A DNA stretch of 64,000 nucleotides from a virus: IMG/VR virus record IMGVR_UViG_3300030447_000318. The stretch is one strand, 5' to 3'. Shown piece by piece: positions 12,313-64,000 of this stretch. Each line of letters opens with the position of its first letter. Position 1 is the first letter of the stretch. Made by a program: the position numbers and the translations under genes. A model generated the notes under the pieces. It saw only the letters and a list, made by a program, of their open reading frames with translations, was not told the DNA's origin and ran no database searches.

Positions 12313-12480
12313 ATATATGGCATCATCTCCTTTTCTGTATACTATATATAGTAGTTATGTATTTATCTAACCACTACATATTGTGATATAAACCGCATGA
12401 AATCCGTCTTTCATTGGTTTTTTGAGTCTCTGAAACGCCCTATTTATGGGCATTCCAAAAATCCTCTACTGTATTATTCT

Positions 12481-30087: not shown

Positions 30088-30160
30088 CAGGGCTAATCGG
30101 ATTCGAACCGATGAATGCAGAGATCAAAACCCTGTGCCTTACCACTTGGCGATAGCCCTA
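30088..30160 (-). tRNA. tRNA-Gln (anticodon UUG)
   Basis: Minus-strand sequence AGGGCTATCGCCAAGTGGTAAGGCACAGGGTTTTGATCTCTGCATTCATCGGTTCGAATCCGATTAGCCCTG folds as a cloverleaf. It has a 7-bp acceptor stem, U8, A14, GG in the D-loop, anticodon loop TTTTGAT (anticodon TTG) and a GGTTCGAATCC T-arm. No encoded CCA. Confidence 0.8.
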
Positions 30161-41759: not shown

Positions 41760-42719
41760 TTATACTATCCTGAGTTTATTCGCCATATTTATAGCTGTTT
41801 GATACTTATCTACATCATCAGTAAGATACCTAATAATTTTTCCTAAATCATCAGATTTTAAGGAGATAACAGGCATATTCTTGACTATTTCATCACCTTT
41901 ACCAGCCAATACATTGTGGATAAACTCACCATGGTCATCAATCAACTGTCTATTTTTCTCTTCTGTTAAACCGATGTAATTCATAGTGATTTGCAAATCT
42001 GTATGATTAAACAGTTTCTGCAATGATAACAAACAATCGGGGTCAAATGGATGTGTCTTATGAATCCAGTAACCAAAACTCTTACGAAGAGAGTGAGTGC
42101 TTACAGCGTATTGTATATTCGCTGCTTTAACTGCTTTGTTTAACTTCTTTCTGTAAACCTCTGTCTGCTGTTTTACAACATCGTTATATTCGACTACATA
42201 ATAAAGATAATCTCCAAGAGATAAGTATCTTTGCTGTTTATTAAAGTCTTTGATTATTTTCTCTTTTCTATCTTCTGATATAGTCTTATTTAACGCTTTA
42301 CACCAAAGTTCTATATCGTTTTTACTGTATATATCCAAGCCTTTTCTCTTTATCCAGTTCGTTTTAGGAATATACTCGAAGATATATTCGTTGTAATGTT
42401 TCTTTATATCAACATCTACATTCTCCAAGTATTTATCTAAGGCTTCAAATACAGTATTACTTATAGGGAGATTAGTAACTTTTCCTGTTTTTTGTTCTTC
42501 AATTGTATTTATTTCTCTTTTTCTGCTTCCGTTTTCGTAGTATATATCAGACCATTTCATCATTACTGTATCTCCAATTCTTCTACCAAGCAGGAGTTCT
42601 AACATTGTAATGAGATAACCATCCCATTCATGGTTATTTTCAAACCATTCAACTACATTTCTAATGTCTTCCATTTTCCAAAACGGATATACTTCAGTTT
42701 TCTCTTTTCTTTTTGTCAT
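41760..42719 (-). CDS. int: tyrosine site-specific integrase
   Basis: Catalytic-region motifs HSLRKSFG and ...ITMNYI (Tyr). Size 319 aa. Confidence 0.7.
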   Translation of the reverse strand: MTKRKEKTEVYPFWKMEDIRNVVEWFENNHEWDGYLITMLELLLGRRIGDTVMMKWSDIYYENGSRKREINTIEEQKTGKVTNLPISNTVFEALDKYLENVDVDIKKHYNEYIFEYIPKTNWIKRKGLDIYSKNDIELWCKALNKTISEDRKEKIIKDFNKQQRYLSLGDYLYYVVEYNDVVKQQTEVYRKKLNKAVKAANIQYAVSTHSLRKSFGYWIHKTHPFDPDCLLSLQKLFNHTDLQITMNYIGLTEEKNRQLIDDHGEFIHNVLAGKGDEIVKNMPVISLKSDDLGKIIRYLTDDVDKYQTAINMANKLRIV

Positions 42720-44154: not shown

Positions 44155-44460
44155 TTAATAATTATTGAGCAAATAATCTCTTGCATACTCATCGCCAAAC
44201 TTTCTATACATCCATTTCCTATAATCTAATGTACAATACCCCGAATGTTGATAAACTTTTACATTATAATCCGTAATTGTATAATCATCAGAAACAGTAA
44301 GAGTTTCATTTGAGTCTTCTTCAAGAATTTCTATGTAGCCTTCAAGGTCGATAGAATGTTCATTTCTTATGATATTTAATTCATTAACTTTATCCGAATC
44401 GGCAAGTAAACTATAAATTTCTCTTAATTCTTCATCTGTTAATCTATTTGCATATTTCAC
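44155..44460 (-). CDS. hypothetical early protein
   Basis: 101-aa ORF in the tiling. Confidence 0.4.
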   Translation of the reverse strand: MKYANRLTDEELREIYSLLADSDKVNELNIIRNEHSIDLEGYIEILEEDSNETLTVSDDYTITDYNVKVYQHSGYCTLDYRKWMYRKFGDEYARDYLLNNY

Positions 44461-57479: not shown

Positions 57480-57564
57480 ATTTTTAATCTCCTTTTTCTT
57501 ATACTATATATTGTAGTTATTCGTTTTATGTACCACTATATCTTGTAATTATTTTACCAAGAAT

Positions 57565-58527: not shown

Positions 58528-58638
58528 TTCCTCGCTTTCTTGTAATAAAATAGGCAGCTAGATATTTATTCTCCTAACTGCCTTTGGGTTTTACATTATT
58601 TTGTTTAGTTACTAAGCTTTGAAATCTTAGTTTCTTTG

Positions 58639-59397
58639 TTAAAATAAATCATTCTTTTTTATTTCTTTAAGAACAACATCTCTGTTCTTCAAAGTAATTG
58701 TATATGGTATGCCTCCTCTATATCCAAATATTTTACCAGATTCACGCATTTTTCTGTTGTCTTCTGCTGTAAACCTCCTTCCACTACTAACAACAGATCC
58801 AATTTTGAATAATTCAGAATTAAGTTTCTCCTTTGCATTTGCTTCATTATCAGCTTCTATATTCCTTGTATATGTTTTAATCTCTTCTTCCTTAGTTGAG
58901 CTATCAACATAAGTTTCTGAAATTTCAAATACATATACATTATCATAGGCAGGAATACCTAGTTCCCAACATACAATTTCTTTTGCTTCTGCTTCTGAAA
59001 TTCCTTGTAGGGCTACTCGAAAAGAAATTCTTTCATCCTTTGAAAGCTGTTCATACTTTTCCATTCTTTCTATTTCAAATGGAAATTCATAATCAACCAC
59101 TCTGCCACTATCATAAAGAGCATCAACAGTTGCGTCATCACAAGTAAAAAATGAACCATCAGAGCAAACAAACCAATTTATCTTTCCCTTTCCCTCTACA
59201 TCTTTTACAGTTGCGAAATCTTGATACATTTCTGTTGGACAATCAATCTCTCCAATGTATCTATACTGCAAATCTTCTTTCAGATTTGCAACCCGTCTCT
59301 GTGAATCTTCCTCTATAGCAGAAAATAAATTCTGCCAATCTTTATTACTTAACGCCTCTAACTGTGCCATAATATTTGCCATAATATCATCCTCCAT
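58639..59397 (-). CDS. hypothetical protein
   Basis: 252-aa ORF. A conserved double-hairpin element lies in its upstream region. Confidence 0.45.
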   Translation of the reverse strand: MEDDIMANIMAQLEALSNKDWQNLFSAIEEDSQRRVANLKEDLQYRYIGEIDCPTEMYQDFATVKDVEGKGKINWFVCSDGSFFTCDDATVDALYDSGRVVDYEFPFEIERMEKYEQLSKDERISFRVALQGISEAEAKEIVCWELGIPAYDNVYVFEISETYVDSSTKEEEIKTYTRNIEADNEANAKEKLNSELFKIGSVVSSGRRFTAEDNRKMRESGKIFGYRGGIPYTITLKNRDVVLKEIKKNDLF

Positions 59398-59505
59398 TCA
59401 AATTTAGTTTGTCATCATCAGTATGCAAGTTACTATCTTGCATAGACCGCCTGTAATAAGGCGGTTTCGACTTAATTCTTTGTAATGAAATGCGAATTTA
59501 GTCTG

Positions 59506-59793
59506 CTATAAATATTCAACCAAATCTCTTGCAAGTTCCATATCATTTTTACCTTGTGTGATTCCGACACATGCAGCTTTAAACATATTTAAACTTGCCT
59601 GTTCACTTTCTCTATATCTGTCTATAATAGATTGATGATACTCCTTTTCAACCTCCCTCAATCTGGTATTCTCCTGCCTTAAATATCTATTTTCCATCAC
59701 AATATCAGCAAGTCCCAACACCAATTCTTCTATATCATATCTTTCCATATTTGCCTTCCTTTCTTCTAAATGAAACACGTATTTAATCTGCAT
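59506..59793 (-). CDS. hypothetical protein
   Basis: 95-aa ORF. Confidence 0.4.
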   Translation of the reverse strand: MQIKYVFHLEERKANMERYDIEELVLGLADIVMENRYLRQENTRLREVEKEYHQSIIDRYRESEQASLNMFKAACVGITQGKNDMELARDLVEYL

Positions 59794-60058
59794 AATACAA
59801 CCCCCATTTTACTTCGACAACTTCCCAAGTCCATTCATATTCTCCATCGTAGGATGAAAGATATGCTGTACCGTCATCACTAATTGTTAAATCAATTAAA
59901 TCTTTATCTCCGTCATCTGCATTATTCACTTCTTCTTCATAAGTGTTTTGTGCATCCTTTTCGAGAAATGCATAAGCATCATCCTCATTATCGAATATAT
60001 CATGGCTTGCAATTTCCTTTTCGTGAACCGCATAACAGATTACTAAATATTTTTTCAT
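59783..60058 (-). CDS. acidic hypothetical protein
   Basis: 91-aa ORF. Confidence 0.4.
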   Translation of the reverse strand: MKKYLVICYAVHEKEIASHDIFDNEDDAYAFLEKDAQNTYEEEVNNADDGDKDLIDLTISDDGTAYLSSYDGEYEWTWEVVEVKWGLYYAD

Positions 60059-60096
60059 ATTATCACCTTTGCCTTTCTAAATACTCATACAATTCT

Positions 60097-60381
60097 TTAT
60101 TGTTCGGGTAAACATTCAAATTTAACAACTTCTTCAACAGGTTCTCCCAATCTAAGAAGTTCATTAATACAAGATACAATTTCTCCTGCTTGTACCTGTA
60201 TTGTTCTACAATCTGAGAACATTATTTCCCAAGTTGATGGTGCTGTTACATACGATGTGTCTTTAATTACATCTAATGCAAAATTTAAACCATTTAAATA
60301 TGCCTTATATTCAGCATCGGTTTTATATAATTTTATTTCTTTCTGCATTTCCTGTTTAATTTTGTTTATTATTATTTCCAT
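60097..60381 (-). CDS. hypothetical protein (start MEIIINKIKQ)
   Basis: An internal ATG with RBS aaggaag avoids overlap with the upstream gene. Confidence 0.4.
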   Translation of the reverse strand: MEIIINKIKQEMQKEIKLYKTDAEYKAYLNGLNFALDVIKDTSYVTAPSTWEIMFSDCRTIQVQAGEIVSCINELLRLGEPVEEVVKFECLPEQ

Positions 60382-60415
60382 ATTCAAACTTCCTTTCTTT
60401 GAAATGTTGTTTTCA

Positions 60416-60688
60416 TCAGGCTGTAACATCTTCAAACATATGAAAAATGTAACCAGCTCCAATTCCAATCTCACCATTTTGTTCATCTACAATTTCACTT
60501 AACAAGTCAATCATTTCATTTTGACTTTTAGTTGCATACAAGATATTTTTTACAACTACCCACACAATGAAATATTTACAGTCCCAATAACTATCGTCAC
60601 CATTGTCAAATACAGGTGGGTCTGTAGTAAAATATACTTCATCGTTTAGATTGTTAATTAGTTGCTTTAATTCTCTTTTTATTTTCAT
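60416..60688 (-). CDS. hypothetical protein
   Basis: 90-aa ORF. Confidence 0.4.
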   Translation of the reverse strand: MKIKRELKQLINNLNDEVYFTTDPPVFDNGDDSYWDCKYFIVWVVVKNILYATKSQNEMIDLLSEIVDEQNGEIGIGAGYIFHMFEDVTA

Positions 60689-60711
60689 ATTATTACCTCC
60701 AGATTTTATTT

Positions 60712-60978
60712 TTATAAGTTATTGTATATGTAATTACACATTTCAATAATCTTTTCTCTGTTTGCAGCTTCTCTTTTGCGTTGCATCGCTTCAAAGTGTT
60801 TTTGACTGTGTACAATAGATTTATATACATCTATTGCAATCTTTACAGCACTTAATATTAATAGTGCTATTATCATAAATGTTATTCTTGTGCCAACGCC
60901 ATAAGGCAATAAAAAAGCAACCATAAAAATGATTGCTAAAATTAATTTCTCTTTTTTATTTATGTATAAATGTTTCAT
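60712..60978 (-). CDS. membrane protein (2 TM)
   Basis: 88 aa and hydrophobic. Confidence 0.45.
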   Translation of the reverse strand: MKHLYINKKEKLILAIIFMVAFLLPYGVGTRITFMIIALLILSAVKIAIDVYKSIVHSQKHFEAMQRKREAANREKIIEMCNYIYNNL

Positions 60979-60992
60979 TGTCGTTACCTCCT

Positions 60993-61274
60993 CTATTCTT
61001 CTACACCAAATTCGTTGTTATAAGCATCTACTTCGTCCATTTCTGCTAAAAGTTCCTTTACCTGCTGTACTTCTAATGGAATAATTTTTTCTTCCCAAGT
61101 ATAACCACAAGCATAAACAAAACCATATTCATACAAGAAGTATTCGCCAGTTCTCTTTTTGTATACTTCTTTACAATAATAGCCAAAGTCTGAATGGTTT
61201 GTTGTTGTTTCATTTTTAGCTATTAATTTAGCTGTTTCTGTATTATACATTTTTCCATTAATTATTCTTTTCAT
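60993..61274 (-). CDS. hypothetical protein (start MKRIINGK)
   Basis: RBS taaggagg before the internal ATG. Confidence 0.4.
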   Translation of the reverse strand: MKRIINGKMYNTETAKLIAKNETTTNHSDFGYYCKEVYKKRTGEYFLYEYGFVYACGYTWEEKIIPLEVQQVKELLAEMDEVDAYNNEFGVEE

Positions 61275-61306
61275 AGTATTTTCCTCCTTAATTTTAATTT
61301 CGTTTT

Positions 61307-61612
61307 TTAGTTCCAATAGTACCAATCAATAATATTATTGTTATTGTCTAATACAAGTTCTACAATTACTTCATCCCAGTTATCAGCTGTAAGGTAGAAT
61401 GAGTCGTTGTAAATATACTCATTTCCCTTGCTATCTACAAAATGAATAGCTGGTTTATTGTTTATACACGCAATTGATTTAATTTTTGCGTGTTCGTAAT
61501 GAATAGCTGTTTCCGTTGTAATTGTAGGCGTTGCGTCTGTAGGTGTTAATGATACACCTAGTACAGTTGTTAATGTTAAAATTGCAGTTGTTAAAAGTTT
61601 TTTCGCTTTCAT
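61307..61612 (-). CDS. secreted small protein
   Basis: Signal peptide MKAKKLLTTAILTLTTVLGVSLTPTDA. Confidence 0.45.
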   Translation of the reverse strand: MKAKKLLTTAILTLTTVLGVSLTPTDATPTITTETAIHYEHAKIKSIACINNKPAIHFVDSKGNEYIYNDSFYLTADNWDEVIVELVLDNNNNIIDWYYWN

Positions 61613-61690
61613 AAAGCATACCTCCGTTTCGCTTTTTTTGCATAAAAATAACAGCCACCGTTTGATGACTGTTATTAGTTACTGTTTCTC

Positions 61691-62170
61691 TTATTTATGA
61701 TAAGCTTTATAAATTTCTTCAGCTGTAGCCTTATTTTCCAATAGCTTTTTAATATTTTCCATTTGTTCTGGATTGTTCCAATTCAGGTATATTATTTCCA
61801 CAACATCAGATAAATCATAACCAGTACCTATCCATTCGCATTCAGAATGGCAGGCGTAATTTGGGTGATATTCTTTCGCCCATACATAAGAGCAATATTT
61901 GTAAATGAAATTTAATTCTTCTATGGATATCATTCTATCAAATTTGCTTTCATCTTCATCTAATATCCAATCGGATATAAAAGTCCCGATTGCCATTTTC
62001 TGAGACAAATTTAACGATGAATTGCCTATTGATAATAATATATTATCTGGAATAATGTTAATTGTTTCATCTTCCTCCATATAAAAATAAAGATCAAATA
62101 AAAAACAATAAAGTCCAGGATTATCATCCTTATATTTAGCTATTAATTCTTTTGGGGTTGTAGATAACAT
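61691..62170 (-). CDS. hypothetical protein (start MLSTTPKE)
   Basis: RBS ataggaggagg before the internal ATG. The longest-ORF start would overlap the upstream gene. Confidence 0.4.
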   Translation of the reverse strand: MLSTTPKELIAKYKDDNPGLYCFLFDLYFYMEEDETINIIPDNILLSIGNSSLNLSQKMAIGTFISDWILDEDESKFDRMISIEELNFIYKYCSYVWAKEYHPNYACHSECEWIGTGYDLSDVVEIIYLNWNNPEQMENIKKLLENKATAEEIYKAYHK

Positions 62171-62186
62171 ATAATCCCTCCTCCTA

Positions 62187-62585
62187 TTATTTTTGTAAGT
62201 ATTTTTGAACAAACTTTGGAAGTTCATAATAATAGTAATCATATTCATCCTCAATCTGTTCAGCCTGAATTTCTCCATAGCTAGACCATTCATCTATGGT
62301 AATTCCATATTCTTCGTCTAACCATTCAGCAAATGATAGTTTGCCTTCCTTATTAGGAGTTGGAATGTTTTCAATATCAAAGTTCGTCTCTTCAATATTG
62401 TACCAATCCATTTCCCATTTTCCGTCTTGAAGTTCATAGATACTGACGCATCCATTGCACTCCCAAGTGCTTGTGGCGATGGGATTACCTGTTTCAGTAT
62501 TGACACCGTACCAAAAGCCCTCTTTGAGGGTAAAACCGTAATATTTGGCAGTTTCAAAGTCTGTCATTTCCTTTAATTTAAGCAT
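62187..62585 (-). CDS. hypothetical protein
   Basis: 132-aa ORF with RBS aaggagg. A conserved 5'-UTR hairpin lies upstream. Confidence 0.45.
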   Translation of the reverse strand: MLKLKEMTDFETAKYYGFTLKEGFWYGVNTETGNPIATSTWECNGCVSIYELQDGKWEMDWYNIEETNFDIENIPTPNKEGKLSFAEWLDEEYGITIDEWSSYGEIQAEQIEDEYDYYYYELPKFVQKYLQK

Positions 62586-62738
62586 AATTGCCTCCTTATG
62601 TGAGAGTCCTCACCCCAAATATTTTTATACGCATTTGGGTTGCGTTTATTATGTATGGATATTAGTTTCCCTTTATGTAAAGGTACTTACGGCGAGAACC
62701 ACGAGAAGGTTTCCAACACTCCCACCATAAGGCAAAAA

Positions 62739-62951
62739 TTAATTTGCCTTTTCATCATCTTCATCTTCTGTGTGACGGCGTAATGATACGCCTTTTTTGT
62801 TGATGATTACATCGTATTCACCATCACAAAAGTCCTTCATTAGACCTTCTGTAATGATAGATAGAGGTAAACCATAACTGTTTTTACAACAGTCTTTGAA
62901 TTCTTCAAAAAGCGTTTCTTCTAGGCTTATGTTTACATTTTTTGTTGCCAA
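62739..62951 (-). CDS. hypothetical protein
   Basis: 70-aa ORF. Confidence 0.4.
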   Translation of the reverse strand: MATKNVNISLEETLFEEFKDCCKNSYGLPLSIITEGLMKDFCDGEYDVIINKKGVSLRRHTEDEDDEKAN

Positions 62952-63021
62952 TTAGACCACATCCTTTCAATATGTTTTTCTATTATTTTAACACAGTTTT
63001 AAAATAGTGTCAAAATGTAAA

Positions 63022-63366
63022 TTAAAAGTCTGTAATCCAATCTCCTGTTTCCCAGGCTTCCCAAACTTTCAACAGTTCTTTTCTGTTCGACTCTTTTATT
63101 TGTTGAATAAAGTTGTTAAAATATTCTATTGGTAGTCTAGGAATAATTGGGTGTTTTTCGTGTTCTGTTGGAATCCATTCTTCATCATCTACAGAACGCA
63201 AAGCTATATCTATCCTCCCTTCGCCCACTATTAACTGGTCGGCAAAAATAGATACAGTGCAATTTTTGCATTGATATTTTAAATTTATACCATCACCTTT
63301 AGAAGCTCTCTGAAGTATTATTGTTATTCCTTCAGCATTTAAATCGTTTAAAGATATTTTATTCAT
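63022..63366 (-). CDS. hypothetical protein (start MNKISLND)
   Basis: RBS ctaggagg before the internal ATG. Confidence 0.4.
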   Translation of the reverse strand: MNKISLNDLNAEGITIILQRASKGDGINLKYQCKNCTVSIFADQLIVGEGRIDIALRSVDDEEWIPTEHEKHPIIPRLPIEYFNNFIQQIKESNRKELLKVWEAWETGDWITDF

Positions 63367-63408
63367 TGGTATCCTCCTAGTATTCGTTTTTTTATGACGC
63401 AAACCCTC

Positions 63409-63609
63409 TTACATTATTACACCTTTTTCTTCTAAGCATAACAATAAAAAAGAAAGTGTATTCAAGTTATGGTTTTTCATAGTTGTATACACTTCATAAA
63501 TGGCATCATAATCAGCCTTAAAAGCTTTTTTGATACCATTTAAAAGCATTTCATCTATATTGTTGTTATCAATGTCACAATAAATTATGACAAATTTTTT
63601 AATTGACAT
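63409..63609 (-). CDS. hypothetical protein
   Basis: 66-aa ORF with RBS aaggagg. Preceded by conserved hairpin elements. Confidence 0.4.
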   Translation of the reverse strand: MSIKKFVIIYCDIDNNNIDEMLLNGIKKAFKADYDAIYEVYTTMKNHNLNTLSFLLLCLEEKGVIM

Positions 63610-63741
63610 AATAGCCTCCTTATAGGTAATTCTACCCCTTGCATATTTTTATACGCTTGCAAGTAGCGTTATTTTTTGGCTTGTCATCATCAGTAAACAA
63701 GTAGCCAACTTGTATAGACTAGGCTTTATGCCTAGTTTCGA

Positions 63742-63960
63742 CTATTCGTCATCTTCTAACGGTGTTTCTTTATCAGGTACAATCATACCATCACTATTGA
63801 TTTTTGCTGTACCTACTTCTAGCACAAGATTATTTTTCGCGTATTCAAGTGCTAGTTCGTGCGTTTCAAAAATAATGATGTGCTTTTCAGCTGGCATCAT
63901 ATCTAATACGCACTTTTCAATCTTTATATAGCCGTACACTTCTAGCCCACCTCCTTTCAT
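63742..63960 (-). CDS. hypothetical protein
   Basis: 72-aa ORF. Confidence 0.35.
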   Translation of the reverse strand: MKGGGLEVYGYIKIEKCVLDMMPAEKHIIIFETHELALEYAKNNLVLEVGTAKINSDGMIVPDKETPLEDDE

Positions 63961-64000
63961 TGGACTTTATATAAAAATGTGCACTATAGTTGTATAAATA

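Follow-up and report, generated by a model that had tools for sequence, protein, structure and literature searches.

What is the function of a short element that occurs twice in the viral DNA record IMGVR_UViG_3300030447_000318, and on which strand and in which molecule does it act? The stretch that was analysed, in the following called the window, comprises 64,000 nucleotides of this record. An earlier note had described at positions 59398-59505 two hairpins separated by TAGAC and enclosed by identical flanks, and had reported a second copy. The gapped pattern TTGTCATCATCAGTA-N-TAGAC-N-TTTCGACT has exactly two matches in the 64-kb window, at 59409-59472 (copy A) and at 63681-63743 (copy B) of the + strand. 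None of 100 dinucleotide-preserving shuffles contained a match (0 expected by chance), which confirms the claim of a two-copy motif. All stems quoted for copy A (tgcaag/cttgca and ccgcct/aggcgg) and for copy B (acaagt/acttgt and ctaggc/gcctag) were found; as stated, they differ between the copies and keep their pairing. The span given for copy A was too wide: the functional unit is 59472-59405 on the minus strand, and the corresponding unit of copy B is 63744-63677, also on the minus strand.

Read on the minus strand, each copy has the order GUC-GAAA-(hairpin)-GUC-(hairpin)-CUGAUGA-U-GAC-A-(tail), with the predicted cut directly after the second GUC; this is the order of a complete hammerhead core. 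Both elements are very probably type II hammerhead self-cleaving ribozymes of the minus (coding) strand, for which cleavage is predicted. In both copies helix III is the hairpin 2 and helix I the hairpin 1 of the earlier note. The hairpins as such were thus correctly seen, but the identity assigned to them was incomplete, as the arrangement is that of a three-helix type II hammerhead with a pseudoknot and not that of a generic double hairpin or small RNA. Three features had been overlooked: the conserved "flanks" are complementary and constitute helix II (GUC/GAC); the loop of hairpin 1 is paired to a tail on the 3' side of the element; and the conserved single-stranded letters are those of the hammerhead catalytic core. 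Helix II, in which GUC pairs with GAC, consists of 3 bp and is open, whereas a loop closes helix I and likewise helix III, and this defines the type II permutation. Direct reading of both copies gives G12 A13 A14, the pair A15.1-U16.1, a GUC triplet, CUGAUGA (C3-A9), and the pair G10.1-C11.1. The GUC conforms to the NUH form of a cleavage triplet, and the pairs A15.1-U16.1 and 10.1-11.1 adjoin the core of a three-helix junction in both cases.

Hammerhead A (59405-59472, minus strand as for all features in this paragraph) extends from the A before helix II at 59472 to the end of the pseudoknot tail at 59405. Together with its neighbouring letters it reads UAA-GUC-GAA-ACCGCC(UUAUUACA)GGCGGU-C-UAUGCAAG(AUAGUAA)CUUGCAUA-CUGAUGA-U-GAC-AA-ACUA. 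The 5' strand of helix II (G11.3 U11.2 C11.1, 59469-59471) pairs with 59411-59413 and is followed by the core residues G12 A13 A14 (59466-59468), which were read directly, and by the helix III hairpin (59446-59465; ACCGCC, loop UUAUUACA, GGCGGU), which includes A15.1-U16.1. In hammerhead numbering, the predicted cleavage site GUC-U (59444-59445) lies between C17 at 59445 and U1.1 at 59444. Direct reading also gave the helix I hairpin (59422-59444; UAUGCAAG, loop AUAGUAA, CUUGCAUA), the core C3 U4 G5 A6 U7 G8 A9 at 59421-59415, which is followed by an extra U at 59414, and the 3' strand of helix II (G10.1 A10.2 C10.3, 59411-59413). The pseudoknot 3' strand ACUA (59405-59408) pairs with UAGU of loop I (59432-59435).

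Hammerhead B (63677-63744, minus strand throughout) is built in the same way. The GUC of helix II (63740-63742) pairs with GAC at 63683-63685. The core GAA (63739-63737) and helix III (ACUAGGC, loop AUAAA, GCCUAGU) occupy 63718-63739, again by direct reading. The predicted cleavage site (63716-63717) has C17 at 63717 and U1.1 at 63716, in the same numbering. The helix I hairpin (63694-63716; UAUACAAGU, loop UGGCU, ACUUGUUUA) contains one U·U mismatch of 63714 with 63696, and is followed in 63683-63693 by the core CUGAUGA (63693-63687), the extra U (63686), and the helix II 3' strand GAC (63685-63683). The pseudoknot 3' strand AGCCA (63677-63681) pairs with UGGCU of loop I (63703-63707). Since the pseudoknot is AGCCA/UGGCU in copy B and ACUA/UAGU in copy A, it covaries between the copies, too. 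In both, at least 4 bp connect loop I to nucleotides 3' of helix II; this contact of 4-5 bp to the tail just 3' of helix II would hold helices I and II side by side. The three-way junction is the minimum-free-energy fold of the minus strand of copy A. For copy B, a predictor restricted to nested pairs trades helix I for the pseudoknot pairing.

The assignment was compared with Rfam. In a local scan of 300 nt, copy A matched RF02276 (Hammerhead_II) on the minus strand with 38.0 bits (E 1.8e-6), the gathering score being 37; copy B had no Rfam match even at E up to 10. A scan of the whole window at gathering thresholds reported only a tRNA, and hammerhead A (59403-59472) was absent from it because the speed filters lose A+U-rich hammerheads. 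(The tRNA gene is located at 30088-30159 on the minus strand and scores 61.8 bits versus Rfam.) In order to search for homologues, IMG/VR was scanned with a pattern consisting of the conserved letters only, which gave 61 loci, and a covariance model (R1) was built from 26 of these sequences, excluding close relatives of the window. With filters off and for the full 64 kb, R1 found copy A at 59400-59473(-) with 68.6 bits (E 5e-16) and copy B at 63672-63744(-) with 63.9 bits (E 9e-15). These are the only strong sites in the window. The next match, with 15.3 bits at 44270-44336, was considered as a third copy and rejected as a chance match, since it lies within an ORF (44155-44460) and has no proper helix III. 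Similarly, inspection by eye had suggested a decayed hammerhead at 62740-62800 (minus), where the hairpin GGCGUAUCAUUACGCC and a GUC are followed further on by GAUGAUGA / GAUGAAGAUGAUGA; with filters off, R1 finds nothing there at E up to 10, and this candidate was dropped as well.

Applied to all loci, as a covariance-model search of related phages had been suggested, R1 gave 95 matches, of which 83 are distinct. The gathering score of RF02276 is passed by 19 homologues in 12 related loci, with up to 60.9 bits, which identifies the family of the window copies as Rfam Hammerhead_II. The low Rfam scores of copies A and B are those of A+U-rich members of this family; the G+C content of the window is 30.8%. 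Note that for the 54 homologues derived from the pattern, conservation of the core is mostly by construction, as the search pattern demanded those letters; additional R1 copies in the same loci are free of this constraint.

Across the 83 distinct homologues and 16 modelled pairs, 98.6% of the cells contain a standard pair, compared with 73.9% for shuffled and 26-50% for slid partners. Double-sided changes occur in 13 of the 16 pairs: all seven model pairs of helix I covary, five of the six pairs of helix III show double-sided changes, and pair 11.2-10.2 of helix II is U-A in 75, C-G in 5, and G-C in 1 of the homologues. The covariation that had been proposed on the basis of two copies is therefore strongly upheld by a larger alignment. 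The homologues also determine the sense of the RNA. In the minus sense, G·U or U·G pairs were counted 51 times and A·C or C·A pairs 8 times, and this excess of G·U indicates that the RNA has the sense GUCGAAA...CUGAUGA, i. e. that of the window minus strand.

This count bears directly on the cruciform that had been offered beside a selected RNA structure, and more generally on a signal acting at the level of DNA (a cruciform or a protein-binding site) or on a structured RNA or terminator of the + strand. It is true that the + strand folds into two hairpins as well, with a similar z-score, and that TTTCGACTT follows hairpin 2 on this strand. On the + strand, though, the 51 G·U pairs would turn into 51 mismatches, the hammerhead core is spelled only on the minus strand, and the pseudoknot as well as helix II are sensible only as RNA. 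ORFs of 150 aa or more are almost all encoded by the minus strand. For an intrinsic terminator the T-run is too poor, and as the terminator scan lists neither element, the terminator reading was rejected. We regard a DNA-level or + strand signal as highly improbable; of the original claim, the selected RNA structure is supported by the covariation of the 83 distinct homologues, and the cruciform DNA is not.

The letters of the core and the departures from the family have to be weighed as well. G12 and A13 are invariant (83/83), and A14 is A in 82 sequences and absent in one aligned row. The pairs A15.1-U16.1 and C11.1-G10.1 are each kept in 83 of 83. Within C3-A9 and G12-A14, the sole freely varying position is N7 (U 78, C 3, A 2); at H17, 79 sequences have C, four have A, and none has G. 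Elsewhere the core departs seldom: C replaces U4 in two sequences, and one aligned row lacks A9. Variation of the core is thus, apart from these few cases, confined to N7 and H17, which are positions where the hammerhead family permits it.

There are three peculiarities of the window copies. Firstly, both carry a core insertion, the extra U between A9 and G10.1. At this place, 76 of the 83 homologues have U, three have C, and four have nothing; as these four share contigs with copies possessing the additional nucleotide, the extra U is an insertion. Secondly, helix II has 3 bp in copies A and B versus 2 bp in the Rfam consensus. Thirdly, helix I of copy B contains the U·U mismatch, and relatives have U·G or U-A at the same pair. 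The insertion in both copies, the mismatch, and the missing Rfam match of copy B are what one would cite for hammerhead-derived elements which are dead or very slow, and which are kept as stabilising hairpins or as protein-binding structures of the mRNA. A relic, however, would not hold a single-stranded core invariant while its stems drift, and the core, A15.1-U16.1, G10.1-C11.1, GUC, and the pseudoknot are kept in A, in B, and in their relatives. Moreover, an extra nucleotide is tolerated in a viroid hammerhead, with U as the most active variant (PMC3705267). The latter is the (+) hammerhead of Chrysanthemum chlorotic mottle viroid (CChMVd), which likewise has one extra nucleotide between A9 and G10.1: according to the review PMC3705267, which refers to De la Pena and Flores 2001, its extra A10 is tolerated, and trans-cleavage is faster with a U in this place but impaired by C or G. 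The viroid ribozyme differs from the window copies in being of type III, in belonging to a circular RNA replicon, and in relying on loop-loop contacts instead of a pseudoknot. Taken together, we consider a dead or very slow derivative unlikely and retain the reading of a self-cleaving ribozyme.

The pseudoknot was evaluated for each sequence individually; counting by columns was dropped, since loop I is aligned in different registers. Loop I comprises 5 or more nt in 65 sequences; 60 of these can form a pseudoknot of at least 4 bp that begins at most 2 nt from helix II, and 24 distinct pairings are used. In the controls, shuffled loops gave a mean of 18 (maximum 31) and swapped tails a mean of 28 (maximum 37). 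A subclass with loops of 3 nt and GACC after the core is without pseudoknot.

Two copies of a two-hairpin RNA with conserved single-stranded letters in an early operon also call to mind other cis-acting RNAs. In outline, put, nut, and RNase III sites resemble such an RNA, and the elements might accordingly be double hairpins like HK022 put, lambda nut-like sites, or RNase III sites of the T7 early type. What decides against this is the presence of a full hammerhead core in correct order and spacing, the covariation of helix II and of the pseudoknot, and the Hammerhead_II assignment by Rfam. In addition, a single contig may contain as many as 15 homologues, each in an intergenic spacer of its own, which suits processing sites but not antitermination with one or two sites per operon. 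We therefore give an antitermination or RNase III element very little credence.

In agreement with the earlier note, which had placed both copies in the 5' regions of minus-strand genes, both occupy intergenic gaps of the minus strand: copy A is flanked by the minus-strand ORFs 59506-59793 and 58639-59382, and copy B by 63742-63960 and 63409-63609. The window has 41 ORFs of 150 aa or more, and the minus strand encodes all of them except one. Downstream of hammerhead A, the Shine-Dalgarno sequence UGGAGG (59396-59391) and the AUG (59382-59380) of a 247-aa gene follow on the minus strand (59380-59396), beginning 8 nt past the pseudoknot. In copy B, the UAG stop codon of ORF 63742-63960 overlaps helix II, G63742 being G11.3; the hammerhead is followed by a 56-nt leader and by a 66-aa gene. 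Most of the 95 homologues have an upstream stop codon 2-8 nt before helix II and a Shine-Dalgarno sequence plus start codon 17-35 nt after helix II. Among the relatives of the window's phage, type A keeps the 247-aa downstream gene and type B the 66-aa gene; the upstream ORF differs among the related contigs (L004, L006, L020, L038, L039, L045, L047, L049, and L050).

As in most homologues, a UAA abuts helix II of hammerhead A. The upstream ORF 59506-59793 stops 37 nt before this UAA, at which a 32-aa ORF in another frame (59472-59570) ends; this may be the vestige of an older gene end or a frameshifted gene. This ORF and two short frames seen by eye, MMTN* and MMTSQKITLLASV*, which begin at the core AUGAUG, are points that would speak for a part of an unannotated coding sequence, the possibility against which the earlier note had weighed its own proposal. 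The element turned out to be non-coding: both copies lie between ORFs, and they differ by indels and by stem swaps that preserve pairing, not by codons. Frame 1 of copy B stops within 12 nt, and the AUGAUG lacks a ribosome-binding site. A leader peptide starting at this AUGAUG was rejected for the same lack of a ribosome-binding site and because its frames are not conserved, and a coding role of any kind has, in our estimation, a nearly vanishing probability. Sigma-70-like promoters (TTGCAT-16-TAAATT on the minus or TTGTCA-16-TACTAT on the + strand) were rejected, too, as they fit copy A only and are not shared by copy B.

If the elements are type II hammerheads, their reaction would be that of the family: the 2'-OH of C17 would attack its own 3' phosphate, and the RNA would be cut after GUC, between 59445 and 59444 in copy A and between 63717 and 63716 in copy B. 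By the chemistry of the family, the upstream piece would end in a 2',3'-cyclic phosphate, and the downstream piece would begin with a 5'-OH. In both cases the ribozyme takes up the spacer from the stop codon to the ribosome-binding site of the next gene. From this position, the most likely role is the splitting of a polycistronic phage (early) transcript into separate mRNAs. The upstream mRNA would retain an intact stop codon and have its 3' end in the helix III hairpin with the cyclic phosphate, and the downstream mRNA would begin with the 5'-OH helix I hairpin, a few nt before the Shine-Dalgarno sequence. Such structured and defined ends would uncouple stability and translation of neighbouring genes. 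Note that predictive scans show a strong promoter-like site at 63013-62985 (minus) and terminator-like sites between the copies; consequently ribozymes A and B need not share one transcript.

Synthetic insulators of the RiboJ type work on a related principle: a hammerhead placed just upstream of the ribosome-binding site, engineered from the type III hammerhead of a satellite RNA, removes the upstream RNA and leaves a defined, hairpin-capped 5' UTR. The elements of the window differ from RiboJ in being natural and of type II, and they would leave a hairpin on the upstream fragment, too. The tight module consisting of stop codon, hammerhead, Shine-Dalgarno sequence, and start codon, which is present in the window and in almost every homologue (up to 15 per contig), may be a natural ribozyme insulator, and type II may have been selected because both new ends receive a hairpin. 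A gating of the cut by upstream translation is conceivable, too. Since the stop codon is 2-8 nt from helix II (and overlaps it in B), a terminating ribosome would keep the ribozyme unfolded, and cutting at each intergenic junction would then be tied to translation of the upstream gene. More remotely, the co-oriented ribozymes may cut out an RNA of 4.27 kb, and an RtcB-type ligase may then connect its 5'-OH and cyclic-phosphate ends. For the joint reading, a natural insulator module that is perhaps gated by translation and, remotely, yields a ligated RNA, we see only a small chance.

The nearest known systems include the type II family RF02276 as described by Perreault et al. 2011 (PMC3088659). 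The window copies share with it the catalytic core, the GUC triplet, loop-capped helices I and III, a short open helix II, and the pseudoknot; like it, they sit between genes of phages or prophages, frequently as multiple copies. According to the same study, loop I forms a pseudoknot of 4 or more bp with the tail on the 3' side of stem II in the majority of type II hammerheads. A point against the present reading is that changes in the area of stem II and the pseudoknot reduced activity in one tested construct (PMC3088659). Several hammerheads flank prophage genes, comparable examples cleave in vitro and in vivo, and the authors proposed that long phage transcripts are processed to gene-length mRNAs (PMC3088659). 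Copies A and B differ from RF02276 by the extra U, the 3-bp GUC/GAC helix II, and the A+U-rich sequence, which is why copy A is only just above the Rfam cut-off and copy B is missing from the Rfam results. A pseudoknot hammerhead with a crystal structure from 2024 (PDB 8YDC, PMC11300833) resembles the window copies in its core, in using a pseudoknot as tertiary contact, and in G10.1-C11.1. In that ribozyme, the pseudoknot replaces helix II and uses an extra stem-loop (helix IV); in contrast, the window copies retain helix II, and their pseudoknot connects loop I with the 3' tail.

The type II hammerhead family is already known, and copies A and B are further members of it, from a lineage with the extra U; as the family was described in 2011, their existence will not surprise a specialist. 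What is gained is that an unexplained conserved repeat becomes an annotated element with predicted cleavage sites at single-nucleotide precision. In addition, standard Rfam annotation under-calls type II hammerheads in A+U-rich phage genomes, A being lost by filtering and B remaining below detection. A 2019 review still lists the function of bacterial and phage hammerheads as unproven (PMC6765202), and the set of 83 sequences, in which stop codon, ribozyme, and ribosome-binding site follow each other with great regularity, could serve to test the purpose which that review leaves open.

The lineage with the extra U is found mostly in uncultivated phage contigs and also in a few MAGs, mostly of Clostridia; six of the seven MAG genome loci were confirmed by R1. 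The host of the window's phage probably belongs to the Clostridia. The contig IMGVR_UViG_3300050821_005831 (loci L028 and L056) contains 15 type II hammerheads within about 12 kb, approximately one per intergenic spacer. Other contigs (L032 and L007 were also noted) contain six and four, all co-oriented with the genes. In L036 and some 30 further IMG/VR contigs, each about 13 kb long, one hammerhead is present per contig; it is G+C-rich and lies 0.5-1.1 kb from an end of the contig, with a small early gene on either side. Judged by a phi29-type DNA polymerase, a packaging ATPase, a major head protein, and an upper collar connector, these contigs are small phi29-like phages.

By database comparison, the proteins encoded next to the elements are orphans. 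At the DNA level, the region 58600-64000 had no match in the GenBank phage collection, neither in near nor in distant mode. For ten neighbour proteins, Pfam and PHROGs gave only one weak PHROG of unknown function, and NCBIfam gave sub-threshold noise only; in the PDB, no relative of the 247-aa downstream protein was found. Elsewhere in the window, a replication module comprises a DNA polymerase, a RecJ-like exonuclease, a DnaB-like helicase, a primase, and a Sak4-like protein. ORF 41760-42719 (minus), which adjoins a replication-initiation gene, has matches to integrase families (phrog_216, E 7e-30), which suggests that the phage may be temperate or that a recombinase may take part in its replication.

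Two further repeats were noticed in the window. A second conserved leader occurs at 62583-62646 and 63607-63670 (minus), directly upstream of two ribosome-binding sites, and one of its copies follows hammerhead B. It reads AACGC-N9-GCGUAUAAAAAU...GGGG-hairpin-AAGGAGG-AUG and contains three hairpins, whose arms differ and yet pair, e. g. CUUGCA/UGCAAG versus CCCAAAU/AUUUGGG. In the scan of viral contigs, this leader was found only in five relatives of the window's phage, with two copies in each. Finally, a 63-nt repeat (76% identical; 12325-12387 and 57487-57549), which ends at the ribosome-binding site of minus-strand genes and has the minus-strand core ...ACUAUAUAUAGUAUA..., looks like a shared promoter or operator.
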